Positions 13,417 through 38,713 of a stretch of 40,253 nt of DNA are shown in pieces. Position 1 is the stretch's first letter. The number at the start of each line of letters is the position of its first letter. This DNA is from a virus. Its lineage: Duplodnaviria > Heunggongvirae > Uroviricota > Caudoviricetes. The DNA is taken from positions 1 to 40,253 of the IMG/VR virus record IMGVR_UViG_2740892426_000004; one strand, written 5' to 3'. The translations under genes and the position numbers were made by a program. The notes beneath the pieces are model-generated. The model worked only from the letters and a program-made list of their open reading frames with translations. It had not been told where the DNA came from and made no database searches.

Positions 13417-14285
13417 TAAATGTCGTTAGTTTCTCCGGTGGCAGGACGTCAGCATATTTGCTCTGGCTAATGGAGCAAAAGCGACAGGCAGGTGAAGACG
13501 TGCATTACGTTTTCATGGATACAGGTTGTGAACACCCGATGACATATCGGTTTATCCGCGAAGTTGTGAAGTTCTGGGATATACCGCTCACTGTATTGCA
13601 GGTTGATATCAACCCAGAGCCTGGGCAGCCAAATGGTTATACGGTATGGGAGCCAAAGGATATTCAGACGCGAATGCCTGTTCTGAAGCCATTTATCGAT
13701 ATGGTAAAGAAATATGGCACTCCATACGTCGGCGGCGCGTTCTGCACTGACAGATTAAAACTCGTTCCCTTCACCAAATACTGTGATGACCATTTCGGGC
13801 GAGGGAATTACACCACGTGGATTGGCATCAGAGCTGATGAACCGAAGCGGCTAAAGCCAAAGCCTGGAATCAGATATCTTGCTGAGCTGTCAGACTTTGA
13901 GAAGGAAGATATCCTCGCATGGTGGAAGCAACAACCATTCGATTTGCAAATACCGGAACATCTCGGTAACTGCATATTCTGCATTAAAAAATCAACGCAA
14001 AAAATCGGACTTGCCTGCAAAGATGAGGAGGGATTGCAGCGTGTTTTTAATGAGGTCATCACGGGATCGCATGTGCGTGACGGACATCGGGAAACACCAA
14101 AGGAGATTATGTACCGAGGAAGAATGTCGCTGGATGGTATCGCGAAAATGTATTCAGAAAATGATTATCAAGCCCTGTATCAGGACATGGTACGAGCTAA
14201 AAGATTCGATACCGGCTCTTGTTCTGAGTCATGCGAAATATTTGGAGGGCAGCTTTATTTCGACTTCGGGAGGGAAGCTGCATGA
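13413..14285 (+). CDS. ninC: NinC-like protein (PAPS-reductase-like fold, 290 aa)
   Basis: Starts [15 protein letters not shown] (SGGxxS P-loop-like motif); size matches lambda NinC. Confidence 0.8.
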
Positions 14286-30909: not shown

Positions 30910-32259
30910 ATGGCTACGTGGCAACAGGGTATTAATTCTGGTGGTTTTCTGGCTGGCATTGGTGCGCAAAATGAGAATGCGCCAAAAGCAAGCGACATTA
31001 ACGCAACGCTTGGTCTGATCCGCGAAAACAATGAGTTGGCTCGCTCAGGTGCAAATAACGTTGGTCTGACCGCGTTACGTGGTCTGGCTGGAGTTGCTGA
31101 TATTTATAAGCAGGAACAGCAACAGAAAGCGATTAATGCGTTCAATAAGGTTCACGCTGATGCATGGGCTTCTGGTGATCCATCGGGACTATTTAAGTTT
31201 GCCCAGGAAAATCCAGCGTTTGTTGCACAGGCACAACAGGCATTTTCCGGTCTTAATGAGCAGCAACGCAACGATATGGGCGATTTAGCCATGAGGGCTA
31301 ACGTCGCTCTTTCTCAGGGGCCGGAAGCCTACAGTAAATTCATTACTGACAACAAGGATAGGTTAAATCGCGTTGGCGCGAATGCTGACTGGATGATTCA
31401 GACAGGTATTCAGAATCCAGAGCAGCTATCACACATGCTGACTACTATGTCTCTCGGTGCGCTTGGACCAGAAAAGGCGTTTGCTGTTCAGGATAAGATG
31501 GTTGGTCGCCAGCAGGAGCAGCAAAGAATTAACGAAACCATTCGCAATAATGACATGACGAATGCGAGGGCTATTAGGGGGCAGGATCTTTCCTATAAGG
31601 CTCAAATGGCAAGACTGAATCACGACAAGTATGTGTTTAAGCAGTCACAGGCGGCCCTTGAAAGAGCAGGACAACTTCAGGATATGGATGTTTTGTCTCT
31701 TAACTCACAGATAGCAGCGACGGGAATTGATCCGCTAACCGGTAAAGCTGCAACGTCAGCCAGAATGTCTCAGGCTAAGAGATGGCTTGATGGCAACAAT
31801 AATTACAACAATGCGTTGATTACTGGTGAGCGAGGGATAGAGAAAATTGATTCTTTGCTTGGTAAGAAGGAGCTTGAAGGTATCGGTCGCTTCGAAGGAA
31901 GAAATATAGATGGCTTCACAAGTGCTGAAGGGCTTGCAAACCGTAATGCGATAGAAGAATTAAAGTCGGGTGCGTTTGTCCAGAACGTGCAGACTATGCG
32001 AGGTATGGGTAGCCTCTCCAATGCTGAAGGCCAAAAACTGGAAAACCTGATCGCGAAACTCGATATAACACAGCCTGAAGAGGTCGTCAGAAAACAGTTA
32101 TCTGAAATCCGATCGCAATATTCTGTATTTCAAAAGGTTGCAGCAAGGGAGGCTGAATCAATGGGATATAGTTCATCAGGTTATGACACATATGTTAGTG
32201 AGCGAAAATCAGGAAGCGACAGCAATAAGTCCGGTTTCTCGTATATATGGGGTGATTAA
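30910..32259 (+). CDS. ejection protein (P22 gp20-like)
   Basis: 449-aa ORF in conserved gene order. Confidence 0.7.
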
Positions 32260-34427
32260 TGGCTAAAGCATGGAAAGATGTTATCGCTTCTCCACAGTAT
32301 CAGGCGTTAACTGAAAAACAGAAAGCACAGGCTCAAGCGCAATATTTTGATGAGGTTGTTGCCCCTAAGGCTGGTGACAAATGGGCTGAAGCAAGAGATC
32401 AGTTTTATGCAGCATACCCTCCGCCTCAGCAGCAGAAAAAAGAACCATCATTGATGCAACAAGCTGGTGATTGGCTCACAGGTGGTCAAAGTGCAGGGCA
32501 AATTGCTGAACAGGCTGGTCGTGGTCTGGTAAACATACCATTTGACGTATTGCAGGGTGGCGCAAGTCTGATTAATGCAATCAGCCAGGGGCTTGGTGGC
32601 CCCAAGGTTTTGGATGATGTTTATCGCCCTGTCGATCGACCGACAGACCGTTGGGCGCAAGCCGGTGAAACATTTGGTGGGTATCTCCTGCCAATTGGCA
32701 CAGCGGCAAAAGCTGCTGGAGCGACAGCAAAGCTCGCAGGAGACATCGGTTCCGCAGGAAACATGATTGCAGGTTCTCTTGCTGATGCTGCAAATCAGGA
32801 GGGCGACTTTGCACAAAATGCTGCCATTAACGGTGGTATCAATATTGGTGCTCAGGGGATACTTTCTGGGGCTGGAAGGATCTTAACCTCTAAATCACCT
32901 CAAGTTCTTGGTGGCGGGGCAATAAATTCCGCTGCTGATGTTTCGAAAATGGCAAAGTCTGGTACAGGAAGAGAGATTATTGCCAGACAGTCAGCTAATG
33001 TGTCAGACGAAATAGCAAAAGCAGCAGATACTGCTGGAATAGATATCAACGCATTAACTCCTGGCATGAGATCAGGTAGTCGTGGTCTTGCTCAGGCGGA
33101 GGGGATTCTGGCGTCAAAGCCCGGAATTACACAGGATGCACACACCAAAGCATTCAGTGAAATAGAGTCGAAATTTAACTCAGCATTGGATGAGTTTGGG
33201 GCTGAAGCAGGAACTGCATCAGAAAAAAGTGCAGCCATAAAACAAAGGGTTTTGGCAAGTATTGATAAAATGAAAAATTCAGAAAAGGCCGCATGGGATA
33301 GCGTCCGCTCCACGATGCCTGACGCAAAGGCCAGAATGTCAAACCTGAACGCTACAATTCAGGGTGATATTTTGGCTGGCATGCCGCTAACTCCTGAGAT
33401 GAAACAATTCGCATCTGCTTATGCTAAAACTGGTAAAAAAGGAATCACGTTTGATGCCATGAAGGCATGGCGAAGTAAACTTGCTGACGCAGAGCAGAAG
33501 TATATAAGGTCTGGTGAGGCAAATACGGCAAGGCGCATGGCTGAGCTTCGTGATGCAGCAACGGAAGATATGCGCATAATGGCTCAAAATGGCGGTTTTC
33601 TTGATGACTGGCAAAAAGCTAATGATCTGTCAAAGGCAAGATTTACAGCACAAGAACAGGCTGAAGCAGCGTTTGGTAGAGACCTTGCAACTGATCAGTT
33701 GGTAACTGATGGATCTAAGGCGTTACAGGGTTCAGCAAAAAGTGGAACAGGTCAGTTCCATAAAATAATAAGCGCCCTACCTGAGTCGGAACGCGCGCCA
33801 GCAATTGCATCAATATTACAAGATGCAATGTCGCAAGGGGTACGCGGAGGTAAGTCTGAAGAGGCTGGAATTAAGCATATCGCGACTATTCTTACCCCAC
33901 AAAACGTGAAGGCAATTAGTCGATATTCTCCAGAACTTGGCAGGATTACAAGTTCATACGGAGAACTTGCACGAGCAGCAACAAAGCCACTTCGATATGT
34001 TGAACAGACAGGGCGATCTATGCCAGCCATTAGCACTCTTGAGAATGGCCTTCATCCAGTTTTAGAGAGCGCATTGTCTGGCGCTTTTAGAACTACTGGC
34101 ACTATCGCAGGGTTCTCTGGAGGAGGCGTTATTGGAGCAATAGCGGGTGGCGCTGCAGGTGGGGCAATTGATGCAATGGCAAAAGGAGCGATAGCGAAAT
34201 TATCCGCAACTAGAAGCGGTCGTTACGCTATTGAAAAGGCTGTTCAAGAGGCAACAAAGGCAGTTAAGGTTGGGGCAAGTGATGGTGCATTAGCGGCGGC
34301 GGAACGCAGATTTATGGCAAATAAGGCCGCCGTAAAAGCAATACGCGAGGCACTAGGAAACGAAGAGTTCCAGCGTTTAGCAAGAGCTGGAATTGTGGCA
34401 TCGCTAAGCGGAATGGCACAGGAGTAA
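32259..34427 (+). CDS. ejection protein (P22 gp16-like)
   Basis: 722-aa Ala/Gly-rich ORF, last gene of ejection cluster. Confidence 0.7.
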
Positions 34428-34757
34428 TTAGTCATCCATGGATGGATTGAGCTTATCTCGTGTTGATGTGGCAATTTTCCCAACATTTTTCAACCAAGAT
34501 TTTAAGAAGGATATGTCGTCCTTAATATCATGAATATCCTCATTCTTTATACGATCAACCTTATCCTCTAAGCTCTCTATAGAACGCTCAATGCTAGACA
34601 GAGAGATTTTTAAGTCCCCTTGCTCACGTTCCAGTGAGGATTTGAGAGCACAATATTCGTTTTCTAGAATTCCTATTTTTTTTGATAGAGAGTGCATTCG
34701 ATACTCATACACCAAACCAGAAACGACTAATGCAGCCAACAGAAACCATTCAAGCAC
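34428..34757 (-). CDS. hypothetical membrane-anchored coiled-coil protein (110 aa, GTG start)
   Basis: AAGGAGG RBS 5 nt before GTG; N-terminal hydrophobic helix LEWFLLAALVVSGLVYEY then heptad-rich region; abuts gp16-like stop convergently. Confidence 0.5.
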   Translation of the reverse strand: MLEWFLLAALVVSGLVYEYRMHSLSKKIGILENEYCALKSSLEREQGDLKISLSSIERSIESLEDKVDRIKNEDIHDIKDDISFLKSWLKNVGKIATSTRDKLNPSMDD

Positions 34758-34787
34758 ACCAACCTCCTTAGTTTTGAGCAGGATACC

Positions 34788-35153
34788 ATGAAAAAAGTTA
34801 ACATTGGAAACGTACCAAAGATGCTCGTTCCGCTCTTTGAGAGCGGTACAATTGTGTTTTGTAGAGACTTTCCAGAATGGCAACGCCTGCATCAAAAACT
34901 TGGTGTGGACGTGCAGGACTCGGATGCCAACGGAGCGTCTCATACAATGAGCAGCGAGAATGGTGTTTTGCATGTGATAGGCGTGTTCAATGGCAAACTA
35001 TCTACTATTGCCCATGAGTGCGCTCACATGGCATTCGATATCTGCTCAAGGGTCGGTGTTGATGTTGAACCAGGAAGAGCCAACGAGACTTACTGCTACT
35101 TAATGAGCAGGCTTGTTGAGTTCTGCGAGCGACATATCAAAAAGCCGGAGTGA
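34788..35153 (+). CDS. hypothetical small protein with HExxH motif (121 aa), putative minimal zinc metallopeptidase-like
   Basis: Motif STIAHECAHMAFD; AGGA RBS; divergent from 34428-34757 with 30-bp spacer. Confidence 0.5.
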   Translation: MKKVNIGNVPKMLVPLFESGTIVFCRDFPEWQRLHQKLGVDVQDSDANGASHTMSSENGVLHVIGVFNGKLSTIAHECAHMAFDICSRVGVDVEPGRANETYCYLMSRLVEFCERHIKKPE

Positions 35154-35166
35154 CCCGGCTTGATTA

Positions 35167-35346
35167 TTACTTTTTGCTGTCTGGAGTTCGCTTATCTAAT
35201 ACCCAGCCATGACCTGGCTTTGTTGTTGGTGGAAGCCTTTCGTTGTCCTTGACGGTGGCAAAATTGTCTTTCTTACCGCCGCGCGGGCCAACTTCTTGGT
35301 ATATTCCGCCGTTTTTTCCTGTGTTTTCACCTGGTTTTTTCGCCAT
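35167..35346 (-). CDS. YjzC-like small protein (59 aa)
   Basis: MAKKPGENTGKNGGIYQEVGPRGGKKDNFATVKDNERLPPTTKPGHGWVLDKRTPDSKK; GAGG RBS 7 nt upstream. Confidence 0.5.
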   Translation of the reverse strand: MAKKPGENTGKNGGIYQEVGPRGGKKDNFATVKDNERLPPTTKPGHGWVLDKRTPDSKK

Positions 35347-35445
35347 GATATACCTCAACATACACCCGTTATTGGGCGATTAAATATTGATCTCATTTTA
35401 TAAGTAGTCAATATGGCCCAGGTAAATGCAAAAATTAACCTACCG

Positions 35446-35697
35446 TCAGGTGGGTTTTTTGTACAAATCCTTCAGCGTATCAAACACCATCTTCTTAACA
35501 AGGTCGGACTGCTCATCAGCGATGCGTTCCGCATCGTCTCAATAGCCTGAAATTTTGGATGGCTTTGATACAGCATCAGTCACTATCTGAACTAATTCTG
35601 AATTAAGAGAGCGGCCATTGGATTTGGCTCGCTGTTTTAGTTTTTCCTTTAATTCGTAAGATAGCCGCAGATTAAATTGCGGGTCATCTCTTCCCAT
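35446..35697 (-). pseudogene. mnt: mnt (Mnt ribbon-helix-helix repressor) interrupted by in-frame TGA at codon 53
   Basis: MGRDDPQFNLRLSYELKEKLKQRAKSNGRSLNSELVQIVTDAVSKPSKISGY-stop(TGA 35539-35541)-DDAERIADEQSDLVKKMVFDTLKDLYKKPT; both halves match recalled P22 Mnt; uninterrupted part 35539-35697. Confidence 0.7.
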
Positions 35698-36003: not shown

Positions 36004-36127
36004 AATCGTTTTGTTCATGTTGCATGGTTTTTAAATGAATAGAAGGTTATTTTTCAAAACAATTGCATCTTTGTCTGCAGTCATTCCGTTTTCTTCAATA
36101 TCTAAATCTTCAAACAGGATGACTAAT

Positions 36128-38713
36128 ATGCCTGATATAACCCCAAATGTTGTGATAGGTATGCCATCGCAACTCTTCACAATGGCTAGCTCTTTTAAAA
36201 CCGTAGCAAATGGAAAAATTTATATCGGTAAGATTGACACAGATCCGGTAAATCCAGAAAACCAGATTCCAGTATATCTGGAACGAGAAGATGGTACTTA
36301 TGTTCAGGTGCCACAGCCAATCGTTATCAATGCTGCTGGATACCCGGTATACAACGGACAGATTTCCAAATTCGTTACCGTGCAAGGCCATTCTATGGCT
36401 GTTTACGATGCATATGGTACGCAGCAGTTCTATTTTCCGAATGTGCTTAAGTACGATCCAGACCAATTAAGACAACAATTAGAAGACCCGGAAGGTGCTA
36501 AAAAATATCATGAATTGCAGATGTCTCGGTGGCGTGATGACGCTGACCCTCGCGGATGGGGAGCAAAAGGTGATGGCATCACCGATGACACATTATCTTT
36601 TCAAGAGTTAGAAAAACAAATCACAGGAAGGATTGTTGATCTAAGGGGTAATACATATATAACAGATCAAGTTTTTGATGGAAATAAGTATATAAATGGC
36701 TATTTTCGCACAGAGAATCGATTACTGCCAGATGCTGATTTTACTGAAAAAAGAATACAAACTATAAAAAAGGGGATGTATACAGGTTTCAGACCTTCTA
36801 CTCCTAATCATGTTAAGTCAGGGTTGCGACTGGCAACAATTAAAAATACTGTCATACAGGGTGCTGTTCTTGATTATTATGACAGTGTTCTTTATTGCTT
36901 GGTAAATGTGAGTGGCAGCGTTAGTTCTGGTGACGAAGTTAATAAAGTTGTTGCTTATAATTGGTTTGGGAATGAAGAGTTAACTCCTCTTTGGGAGACT
37001 AAAGGTAGTAGAGAATTAGGACATCAATGTCTTGGTTTAACCATAGGGCGCGTTGGTTTTCGTAACACAAGAGGCCAGTTACAGATATGGGGGTTAGCTG
37101 GCACAGCTAAAGGAGAGGATCGCGCAAAGTATATCACCAGATTCACCCCTACTGATGGTGGTGAAATTGAACCAGAGTTTTTTCTCATATGGGAAGATGG
37201 TTACGAGAATCAGGTAAATGTTTTATGCACCGACCCTATGAGTCGATGGCTGATTACTACAGCAAAACGTTATGTTGGCCCTGGTGAGAGCCCATCAACA
37301 CCAGATCAAATTCGCTATTATGTAAAAGTATTTGATACCAGCAAATTTATTAACCCGCAGGCGTACAATTACGATTATCGTAATGAAGCAACTTTTGAAT
37401 TTGAAATTGCCGATTTTGTGAGGGATATGCAAACAGTTGCGTGTGACGGTACTGCTATTTATTTTTGTCAGGCTGGATCTGCATATTCTTCAACCAGAAA
37501 ATATTTGCATCAGTACACACTTGATGGTGTTTATCTTGGGGTGCAGCAAATACAGGCAGGTGCAGGAAGAGCCTATGAAATAGCAGATCCAAATGATACC
37601 GGAACGCCAGATGTTAGCAATCTTACATATGAACCAGAAGCAATGTTTTTCCGTATGATTGCAGGTGGGTATGACCTTGTAATGGGGAATACAAATGGCA
37701 TACCAGATGGTGATAGTGGGCGAGAAACTACATTTTACACATTAATGCCACAACAGGTAATGCATGTAAAAACAACATCAAGAAATCAGCCTGGTATTAT
37801 CATTGATTCAACCCATGATATTGTCACTAACTCTGGTTTGTTAAGCCTTGGTAAAATTATGCCTGGTGGTGAAGTCATAGAGCAGGCAAACCTTGATGAC
37901 AAAGGATTCACTGTTTCGAGGGCAACAACACAAGCCGCCCGTTATGATGCAAAGAATAGGTTACGGAATGTAACTTTTCATGTTAGTGAAAAAGGTGATA
38001 CCGGTATTTATGACTTTACCAATGCTCAATGGATATTTAAATCTCCCTTATCAACATCTTCATATTCGTATATCGGTCAGTCAGCGGAGGTTAATGGCTA
38101 TATAAGTGCTAATAAAGATAATACGTCATCATGTGGGACATCATCTAAACGGTGGACGCAAGTATATGCAACTAATGGGGCAATAAATACTTCAGACCAG
38201 ACATTGAAAACAAAGCCACTGACAGTAGAGCAACTTTCAGAAATCATGGAGGTGGATCAGGATGCAATTCTTGACGCATGGGGTGACGTAAATATTATCG
38301 TTTACCAGTGGTTGTCCGATATTAAGGCTAAAGGTTCGGATACTGCTCGTTGGCATTTCGGAGCAATTGCACAGCAGGTAAGAGATGCGTTTCTTGCAAA
38401 GGGGATAGATGGAACAAGATTTGGCTTGCTATGTCATGATAAATGGGATGATGAGTACCAACCTGTAATGGCACAGCGCAAGGTGTCATTTATAGCTAAA
38501 TCCCCTGAAGGAGAAGACATCGTTCGCGAATACTTTGAAGAATACGATACTGGTGACACGGAACTGGTTGTACATGCTGGTGAGCGTTGGGGATTGCGTC
38601 CAGATGAATGTTTGTGGTTGGAGGCTGCATTCCAGCGAAGAAGGTGTGAACGCATTGAGTCTCGTTTAACAGAGCTTGAATTGATAATTAAAAAAGCAAA
38701 AGAGATAGAGTAG
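36128..38713 (+). CDS. tailspike protein: P22-type head-binding domain, GDG-motif central domain, C-terminal intramolecular-chaperone-like domain
   Basis: From [43 protein letters not shown] (recalled P22 gp9 N-terminus); AGGA RBS 9 nt upstream; central [11 protein letters not shown] motif; C-terminal ~170 aa from NTSDQTLK resemble S74-type chaperone domain; track ORF starts in frame at 36035 without RBS. Confidence 0.8.

Follow-up and report, generated by a model that had tools for sequence, protein, structure and literature searches.

HkcB, HkcC and Orf59a in the 'ant moron' of a mosaic Escherichia coli prophage: probable exchangeable cassettes rather than a two-gene system

Two divergent genes lie 30 bp apart (34758-34787) in the accessory region of a P22-like Escherichia coli prophage, and the locus raises the question of whether they form one anti-phage system or are separate pieces of exchangeable cargo. 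The prophage is that of IMG/VR virus record IMGVR_UViG_2740892426_000004, of which a stretch of 40,253 nucleotides (positions 1 to 40,253 of the record; hereafter, the window) was analysed. The initial annotation had read the two genes, identified below as hkcB and hkcC, as an undescribed module for superinfection exclusion or abortive infection. Most of its description of the reading frames was borne out by the sequence: the GTG start, the AAGGAGG ribosome-binding site (RBS) and the abutting stop codon of the minus-strand gene, the 30-bp spacing, and the 121-aa product of the plus-strand gene with its AHECAHMAF motif (H76, E77 and H80). Only the length of the minus-strand product has to be corrected, from 110 to 109 aa (110 codons with the stop). 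Homologues of both, the selection pattern of hkcB and the invariant motif of HkcC indicate that the two reading frames are real genes, and their placing as accessory cargo agrees with the variable region already known to separate gene 16 from the tailspike gene, the 'ant moron' (PMC2629481).

Comparison with coliphage HK620 (GenBank AF335538) revealed 98.2% nucleotide identity over a 1,251-bp region, with the same gene order and orientation. HkcB is 97-98% identical to its HK620 counterpart, and HkcC is 100% identical to both the HK620 and the P22 proteins. The HK620 annotation places a possible HkcD, a bidirectional terminator, and mnt and ant remnants after hkcB and hkcC ('unknown'). In P22, hkcC lies between sieA and mnt together with orf59a (= HkcD) and is left unannotated in several records. 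The window is 99.3% identical to P22 rightwards from the hkcB start codon, and the homology of either the window or HK620 with P22 begins exactly at the GTG shared by hkcB and sieA. The genes are those named hkcB and hkcC in HK620 in 2001 and filed under PHROG 5962 and 1365, and their hot spot has already been described, so they are not an undescribed system. Nor do they stand in place of sieA, mnt, arc and ant together: only sieA is replaced, by hkcB, and P22 encodes an HkcC of the same sequence. In the epsilon34 genome paper, hkcC and 59a are entered among the P22 genes of the variable 'ant moron' that lack a known function, and the hkcB homologue of epsilon34 is noted (PMC2629481).

Literature searches on hkcB and hkcC, phage zincin anti-defence proteins and YjzC retrieved no functional study. 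Scans of HkcB and HkcC against Pfam, NCBIfam and PADLOC gave nothing significant, and PHROGs returned families of unknown function only. In PADLOC-DB, HkcC had no match, and the sole match of HkcB was to DpdH (E = 0.0018, 16 bits) over the hydrophobic and coiled-coil stretch; the defence-scanner check thus found no defence-system model matching either protein. With moderate confidence, we read the locus as the left part of the known 'ant moron'/immI region in a mosaic HK620/CUS-3-like E. coli prophage, which would hold three exchangeable cassettes (hkcB, a candidate exclusion gene; hkcC, a putative late zincin gene; and orf59a) and not a two-gene system.

Exchange on either side of a short spacer

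Within the phage collection, hkcB is present in five phages (HK620, 611R6, epsilon34, CUS-3 and SEN22), and it occurs without an adjacent hkcC in epsilon34, CUS-3 and the prophage of E. coli TW14425. The divergent neighbour of hkcB in epsilon34 is an unrelated 139-aa gene. In CUS-3 and TW14425, hkcB is the last gene of a leftward operon, which in TW14425 runs Arc, Arc, hypothetical protein, PIN-domain protein, hkcB. Conversely, hkcC at 95% identity or above was found in 52 phage records, 49 of which are hkcB-free P22-like Salmonella phages; in the annotated records of these Salmonella phages it adjoins sieA. P22, L016 and DETEC-E601 are examples of hkcC without hkcB. Other prophages fill the sieA slot with a Rap1a-like gene, a 75-aa gene, or a ClpP-like gene plus hkcB.

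The same pattern is seen in bacterial chromosomes. Of 5,426 complete E. coli genomes, 330 have a match to at least part of the hkcB-hkcC-orf59a query, and only 33 hold all three genes. The partial matches end exactly at the two start codons (query positions 328 and 361). In addition, the spacer of about 34 bp (34755-34790) occurs by itself, at 96-100% identity, in many E. coli genomes that lack both hkcB and hkcC. Because the breaks fall at both start codons and the spacer is also found alone, it appears from these comparisons that the spacer, with the RBSs of both genes, acts as a conserved boundary that lets the cargo to its left and the cargo to its right be exchanged separately. The separate assortment of hkcB and hkcC in phages and in E. 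coli genomes means that the two genes are not a module, contrary to the first proposal.

Two further observations concern this boundary and the slot to its left. The spacer of about 34 bp appears to be a boundary sequence widely shared by P22-like prophages. The leftward operons that occupy the sieA slot in related prophages encode a PIN-domain protein (L018, TW14425, 2958-4216), a Rap1a-like immunity-fold protein (L016, 209-562) and a ClpP-like protease (L017, 4349-4885); the slot appears to collect diverse conflict-type cargo.

Table 1. Features of the window from gene 16 to the mnt homologue
Feature	Position	Strand	Description
Gene 16	32259..34427	+	DNA-ejection protein, 722 aa, long HK620/epsilon34/CUS-3 type; stop abuts hkcB stop
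hkcB	34428..34757	-	109 aa; N-terminal membrane anchor and long helix; sieA slot; PHROG 5962
hkcB/hkcC start-to-start spacer with both RBSs	34755..34790	.	AAGGAGG (leftward gene), AGGA (hkcC)
PsieA-equivalent region, putative hkcB promoter	34788..34818	-	Inside the first hkcC codons; by P22-pbi annotation
hkcC	34788..35153	+	121 aa; HExxH at 76-80, E100; PHROG 1365
G+C-rich hairpin (bidirectional terminator tORF59A / t mnt)	35142..35161	.	Terminator scan and HK620, P22 annotation
orf59a (hkcD)	35167..35346	-	59 aa, basic, Gly-rich, YjzC-like; PHROG 3202
orf59a promoter, sigma-70-type, TTGACT-17-AATATT	35383..35411	-	Promoter scan; followed by stem-loop, then RBS
mnt homologue (Arc/Mnt ribbon-helix-helix repressor)	35446..35697	-	Nonsense codon 35539-35541; Pfam Arc 8e-21

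The hkcC-orf59a block in late operons

Analysis of ten loci encoding a close HkcC (59-100% identity) revealed that in nine of them an opposite-strand gene of 59 codons lies 4-15 bp beyond hkcC, with a product 76-100% identical to Orf59a. Identity to P22 orf59a is 98-100%, and the copies in siphovirus prophages are 76-86% identical; the match of Orf59a to the Pfam YjzC model (E = 0.0017) falls short of the cut-off. Siphovirus prophages or contigs make up four of these loci, among them those of Klebsiella oxytoca and Rosenbergiella; there the pair has the tail-tube/chaperone genes on one side and the tape-measure gene on the other, with hkcC co-oriented with the late genes. The AAGCCGG...CCGGCTT hairpin that separates hkcC from orf59a is also present in L013 and L014.

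The two genes differ in their upstream sequences. Promoter scans flagged the orf59a promoter in the window, L011, L013 and L014, and within its TTGACN-17-AATATT pattern the TGA of the -35 element and the AATATT are invariant in all seven aligned upstream regions, which come from unrelated contexts. A conserved promoter was also sought upstream of hkcC across contexts and none was found: the upstream sequences are unrelated, and in two of them a terminator stands just before the gene. Since hkcC is co-oriented with the late genes in every temperate context examined and has no conserved promoter, antiterminated read-through of the late operon is the most economical explanation of its expression. 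HkcC would then be made from antiterminated late transcripts, and orf59a, on the strand opposite to the late operon, would be transcribed in the lysogen. Two points weigh against this account. Late expression of hkcC is inferred from orientation and from the missing conserved promoter, and hkcB contains a promoter-like site at 34642-34670 (10 of 12 matches); shuffled sequence yields at least as many sites of this kind.

These promoter and hairpin data bear on a different explanation, in which hkcC and orf59a are a pair toggled by the lysis-lysogeny decision, so that Orf59a made in the lysogen, or its effect, would be cancelled by late HkcC as a form of self-immunity. The convergent arrangement with a shared hairpin in nine of ten loci, spanning podovirus and siphovirus late operons, is what such a pair might look like, as is the asymmetric promoter conservation (orf59a yes, hkcC no), and each gene is found in 52 records of the phage collection at 95% identity or above. 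Wider comparison loosens the association: in ST64T, L, epsilon34 and mEp021, more distant homologues of HkcC (35-40% identity) have the lysis genes on one side and the small terminase gene on the other, in late-gene orientation and without orf59a, and one of the ten loci has hkcC without orf59a. Clostridium phage phiCT9441A has a YjzC-like gene on the antisense strand within its head operon, and a search of the surroundings found no zincin. The co-transfer itself may reflect a single composite moron. We consider a toggled pair unlikely. In the reading of three exchangeable cassettes, the hkcC-orf59a pairing is real for the enterobacterial module, as judged from these gene neighbourhoods, and universal for neither family.

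Two side observations belong to the block. A stem-loop, GCCCAATAACGGG, stands between the promoter and the RBS of orf59a at 35347-35411 (-) of the window and is also found in L002, L011 and L013-L016. Its stem sequence varies by locus and the pairing is seemingly kept (GCCG...CGGC, GCTCA...TGAGC), and the element may be a 5' untranslated region structure or an operator. In the siphovirus prophages that carry hkcC and orf59a, a 120-184-aa protein with weak matches to Zn_ribbon_3 and DUF2545 is encoded near the module at varying positions (L011, 9771-10136; L013, 6710-7072; L014, 5664-6218; L015, 4568-4936), a passenger of the same tail-operon hot spot.

HkcB in the place of SieA

Comparison of the window with P22 showed how precisely hkcB takes the place of sieA. 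The hkcB start codon is the GTG at 34757-34755, with AAGGAGG at 34769-34763 and a gap of 5 nt, and a published sieA-deletion primer ends in ...AAGGAGGTTGGTGTG, which gives sieA the same start and RBS (PMC4697819). PsieA is annotated at 13861-13891 in the P22-pbi record, where 13861 is the start of hkcC, and the window is about 99% identical to P22 across this region. At its other end, hkcB adjoins gene 16 stop to stop (34427/34428), an abutment that recurs in all five loci examined (HK620, epsilon34, CUS-3, L017 and TW14425). Since hkcB swaps the sieA open reading frame from the start codon to the end of gene 16, the sieA RBS and the annotated PsieA are inherited with it. P22 SieA and HkcB thus share slot, strand, start codon, RBS and annotated promoter, both are membrane proteins, and both genes directly follow gene 16, whose product is the inferred target of SieA. 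Activity of the sieA promoter has been shown in lysogens, and it is strong in carrier cells (PMC4697819).

Hydropathy and the AlphaFold2 model agree with the N-terminal hydrophobic segment and long helix first proposed for HkcB. A single hydrophobic segment covers residues ~2-17, R20, K26 and K27 follow the anchor, and the model is one continuous helix from residue 2 to 103 (predicted local distance difference test score [pLDDT] 85). The HkcB family is small; the anchor and rod vary among members, and the last ~25 residues are strongly conserved as WLxNVGxIATSTRDKLNxSMDD (W88...D109). Purifying selection on hkcB is seen over the last 45 codons, with 11 synonymous versus 14 non-synonymous changes there and 12 versus 40 in the rest.

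The base-for-base replacement of sieA at the start codon makes a candidate exclusion role for HkcB reasonable. By analogy with SieA, HkcB would be made in lysogens and carrier cells from the sieA RBS and PsieA, and at the inner membrane it would block injection or superinfection by P22-like phages, as an analogue and not a homologue of SieA. Several points weigh against this role. Unlike SieA, which has 162-164 aa, three transmembrane helices and a cytoplasmic FxRYPxEAxxFNK motif, HkcB has 109 aa, one anchor helix and a long rod; BLASTP of HkcB against P22 SieA gave no alignment, and on reading the HkcB sequence the motif is absent. The PsieA-equivalent site was not flagged by the promoter consensus scan, and its position rests on the GenBank annotation. 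By the positive-inside rule the rod is tentatively placed in the cytoplasm, which is less intuitive for blocking a periplasmic conduit. Finally, the agreement with sieA (the gene 16-gene 9 interval, leftward orientation, and sieA start, RBS and promoter) is positional only, and the linkage of HkcB with gene 16 could be mere adjacency.

The gene 16 product of the window is 70% identical to epsilon34 gp13, and its alignment with P22 gp16 is limited to the N-terminal ~146 aa. This long gp16 type is present at every hkcB-bearing locus examined (the five named above). The prophage of E. coli F11 has kept the long gp16 type and lost hkcB by deletion, which rules out hkcB as an obligatory partner of long gp16 and indicates that hkcB is dispensable. 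The HK620 ejection proteins partly escape both SieA types tested, and a figure of 26% identity between the gp16 proteins of HK620 and CUS-3 was used to assign this partial escape to gp16 (PMC10883804). Separately, we observed that gp16 of HK620 (L001, 1060-3225) and of CUS-3 (L006, 3325-5481) are 77% identical, versus the 26% stated in that paper.

The anchor and rod also suit other membrane proteins, and HkcB may instead be a lysis or regulatory component (a holin, an antiholin or a spanin-like protein) or a small membrane toxin or abortive-infection effector. The single anchor and the coiled coil fit such roles, as do weak profile matches, none of them significant, to an Rz-like spanin PHROG, XhlA and Rz1-like models, and in TW14425 and CUS-3 hkcB ends leftward operons that include a PIN-domain protein. 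These matches, however, stand at coiled-coil noise (E ~0.04 and above), just as the HkcB profile retrieved only generic coiled coils from the PDB (GCN4, keratin and vimentin); hkcB stands a long way from the lysis cassette, on the strand opposite to the late operon, and it lies behind the lysogen-active sieA promoter and RBS. A lysis, regulatory or toxin role is quite unlikely in our judgement. Set beside this membrane lysis or regulatory role and membrane toxicity or abortive infection, a SieA-analogous exclusion role is the one we favour for HkcB, at roughly even odds. Equally doubtful as the lysis or toxin role is a bolder combination, in which hkcC and orf59a would be a new life-cycle-gated pair hopping between podovirus and siphovirus late operons, with a YjzC-like protein serving defence or modulation of the host in the lysogen and a minimal zincin, made only once the antiterminated late operon fires, cancelling that function by proteolysis, and HkcB, independently, a new single-helix exclusion protein matched to the HK620/CUS-3 type of gp16 conduit, which partly escapes SieA.

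HkcC, the flanking genes and known systems

Profile search of 1.84 billion cluster representatives (clusters at 50% identity) retrieved 551 HkcC relatives at E <=1e-3; most of the matches listed are free-standing and 100-140 aa long. When 82 sequences were aligned (mean column identity 29%), no column other than H76, E77, H80 and E100 proved invariant, and this invariance supports the first description of the HExxH as a genuine zincin signature. The AlphaFold2 model of HkcC (pLDDT 83; predicted template modelling score [pTM] 0.80) has strands at 11-13, 21-25, 52-56 and 59-65 and a helix at 28-37; the HExxH lies on the helix 74-88, and E100, 20 residues past H80, opens the helix 100-116. The zincin-like metallopeptidase (MPTase) core consists of a sheet and an N-terminal helix, an HExxH helix and a Glu-ligand helix (PMC5512222), and the motif and predicted topology of HkcC agree with it in the HExxH helix, the Glu ligand and the fold.

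Matches to structures and curated families were weak but all pointed the same way, towards zincins. The structure-modelling check suggested for HkcC came out in part, with a zincin-like AlphaFold2 model and no Foldseek match in the PDB; the family profile reached PDB sequences at best at E ~0.4, weakly, over the HExxH regions of astacin and myroilysin. The fold search of BFVD retrieved 17 predicted viral structures at E <1e-3, from many lytic and temperate phages, one of them named SprT-like, and weaker matches bear the names SprT-like, PolyVal metallopeptidase and metalloprotease. The Pfam SprT-like family (PF10263) weakly matches 24 of the 82 HkcC relatives at E <=1 (best 1e-4); HkcC itself has no PF10263 match at E <=1, and the gathering threshold was not reached. 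Pfam scans of longer family members for fusions gave no informative ones. HkcC has the motif and the predicted fold and passes no curated family threshold, and so is best filed as a stand-alone member of the zincin superfamily. We conclude from the alignment and the model that HkcC is predicted to be a minimal stand-alone gluzincin-type domain, and it is probably an active Zn endopeptidase. Its substrate would be a host or phage protein; counter-defence and removal of a lysogeny-phase protein are the leading guesses, both speculative.

HkcC might instead lack peptidase activity, with the HExxH/E site serving another metal-dependent or structural role, or be an inactive binder with a zincin fold. 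Its very small size and the missing significant match to any solved peptidase fit such a role, and the substrate-binding elements are not assessable from a predicted model alone; yet the sole four invariant residues are exactly the gluzincin catalytic base and three metal ligands, and the predicted topology fits the zincin core, which makes a non-peptidase very unlikely.

It is highly improbable that hkcB and hkcC work together as a divergent system for superinfection exclusion or abortive infection in which the HExxH protein has a repressor or a host component as its target: the genes are adjacent, divergent and 30 bp apart in an accessory hot spot, an arrangement that recurs in HK620, phage 611R6 and 33 E. 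coli genomes, but each is commoner without the other, the breakpoints fall exactly at the start codons, P22 pairs hkcC with sieA, PADLOC gave no significant match, HkcC homologues occur in strictly lytic phages including Autographiviridae and N4-like phages, and when a P22 shotgun library was screened for resistance to P22, the hkcC region was not recovered, and only gtrABC, sieA and c2 were (PMC4697819). The homologues in lytic phages argue against a role of HkcC in exclusion or in repressor cleavage tied to lysogeny, and the idea of a repressor target is further disfavoured by the missing M78 match and the missing adjacent helix-turn-helix (HTH) gene. Of the functions first proposed, superinfection exclusion stays reasonable for the membrane protein, and the joint anti-phage or abortive module is not supported.

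To the right of orf59a, the region of the mnt homologue aligns to P22 mnt. An in-frame stop at codon 53 shortens its product to 52 aa versus 83 aa, and the copy in E. coli F11, 97% identical, is intact. The window locus has kept orf59a and the mnt homologue and is missing arc and ant; given the nonsense codon and the absence of these two genes, it looks like a decaying immI remnant. The tailspike open reading frame (36035-38713, +) has a mechanical start that gives a 28-residue leader, and the P22-type head-binding domain begins from the Met at 36119, which from the sequence is probably the true start. The tailspike consists of a Head_binding domain, an endosialidase N-terminal extension and a C-terminal Peptidase_S74 chaperone domain, a domain set that makes it unlike the HK620 tailspike.

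In well-studied P22, hkcC and orf59a have stood between sieA and mnt with no assigned function for more than 20 years. HkcC offers a founding example of a family of ~120-aa proteins with at least 551 clusters at 50% identity, which is absent from Pfam, and as a candidate minimal phage protease it gives a hypothesis testable by mutation (E77A). With hkcB taking the place of sieA exactly at the start codon, HkcB becomes a candidate for a second exclusion protein that is not related to SieA, and such exclusion would be relevant to P22-like phages with ejection proteins that partly evade SieA. The 34-bp spacer, with both RBSs, illustrates clearly how a boundary sequence permits start-codon-precise cassette exchange. 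Current understanding is not overturned by these results, and their practical value lies in better annotation of P22-type genes.

Among known systems, the closest is HK620 itself. The window prophage is a different mosaic, overall closer to CUS-3: its tailspike is endosialidase-like, unlike that of HK620, and it holds an mnt homologue with a nonsense codon, whereas HK620 holds a mere mnt remnant. The locus further resembles the 'ant moron' of P22-like phages and late-operon morons such as the HK97 gp15 exclusion moron, which are accessory genes with their own promoter and terminator that lie between late genes and vary among close relatives. The hkcC-orf59a block behaves like a moron in podovirus and siphovirus late operons; unlike in such morons, the conserved promoter belongs only to the antisense member, orf59a.

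HkcC can be compared with two groups of HExxH proteins. The ImmA/IrrE proteins (M78), which cleave repressors of phages and integrative and conjugative elements, are, like HkcC, small HExxH proteins of mobile elements. They differ from it in that neither HkcC nor its 82 relatives match Pfam M78 and in that no HTH repressor gene is adjacent to hkcC, whose neighbours are hkcB or sieA, and orf59a; BFVD matches of HkcC named IrrE have probabilities of 0.16-0.44, at noise level. The MPTase domains of polyvalent proteins and the SprT-like proteins share with HkcC the HExxH helix, the Glu on the next helix, and a small sheet and helix in front. In phages and plasmids, the polyvalent-protein domains sit in large injected proteins, whereas HkcC is a stand-alone protein of ~120 aa. 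SprT/Spartan-type enzymes have a third His instead of the Glu and carry extra Zn-ribbon or DNA-binding parts, and stand-alone catalytic zincins of a size like that of HkcC are established as 'minigluzincins'.

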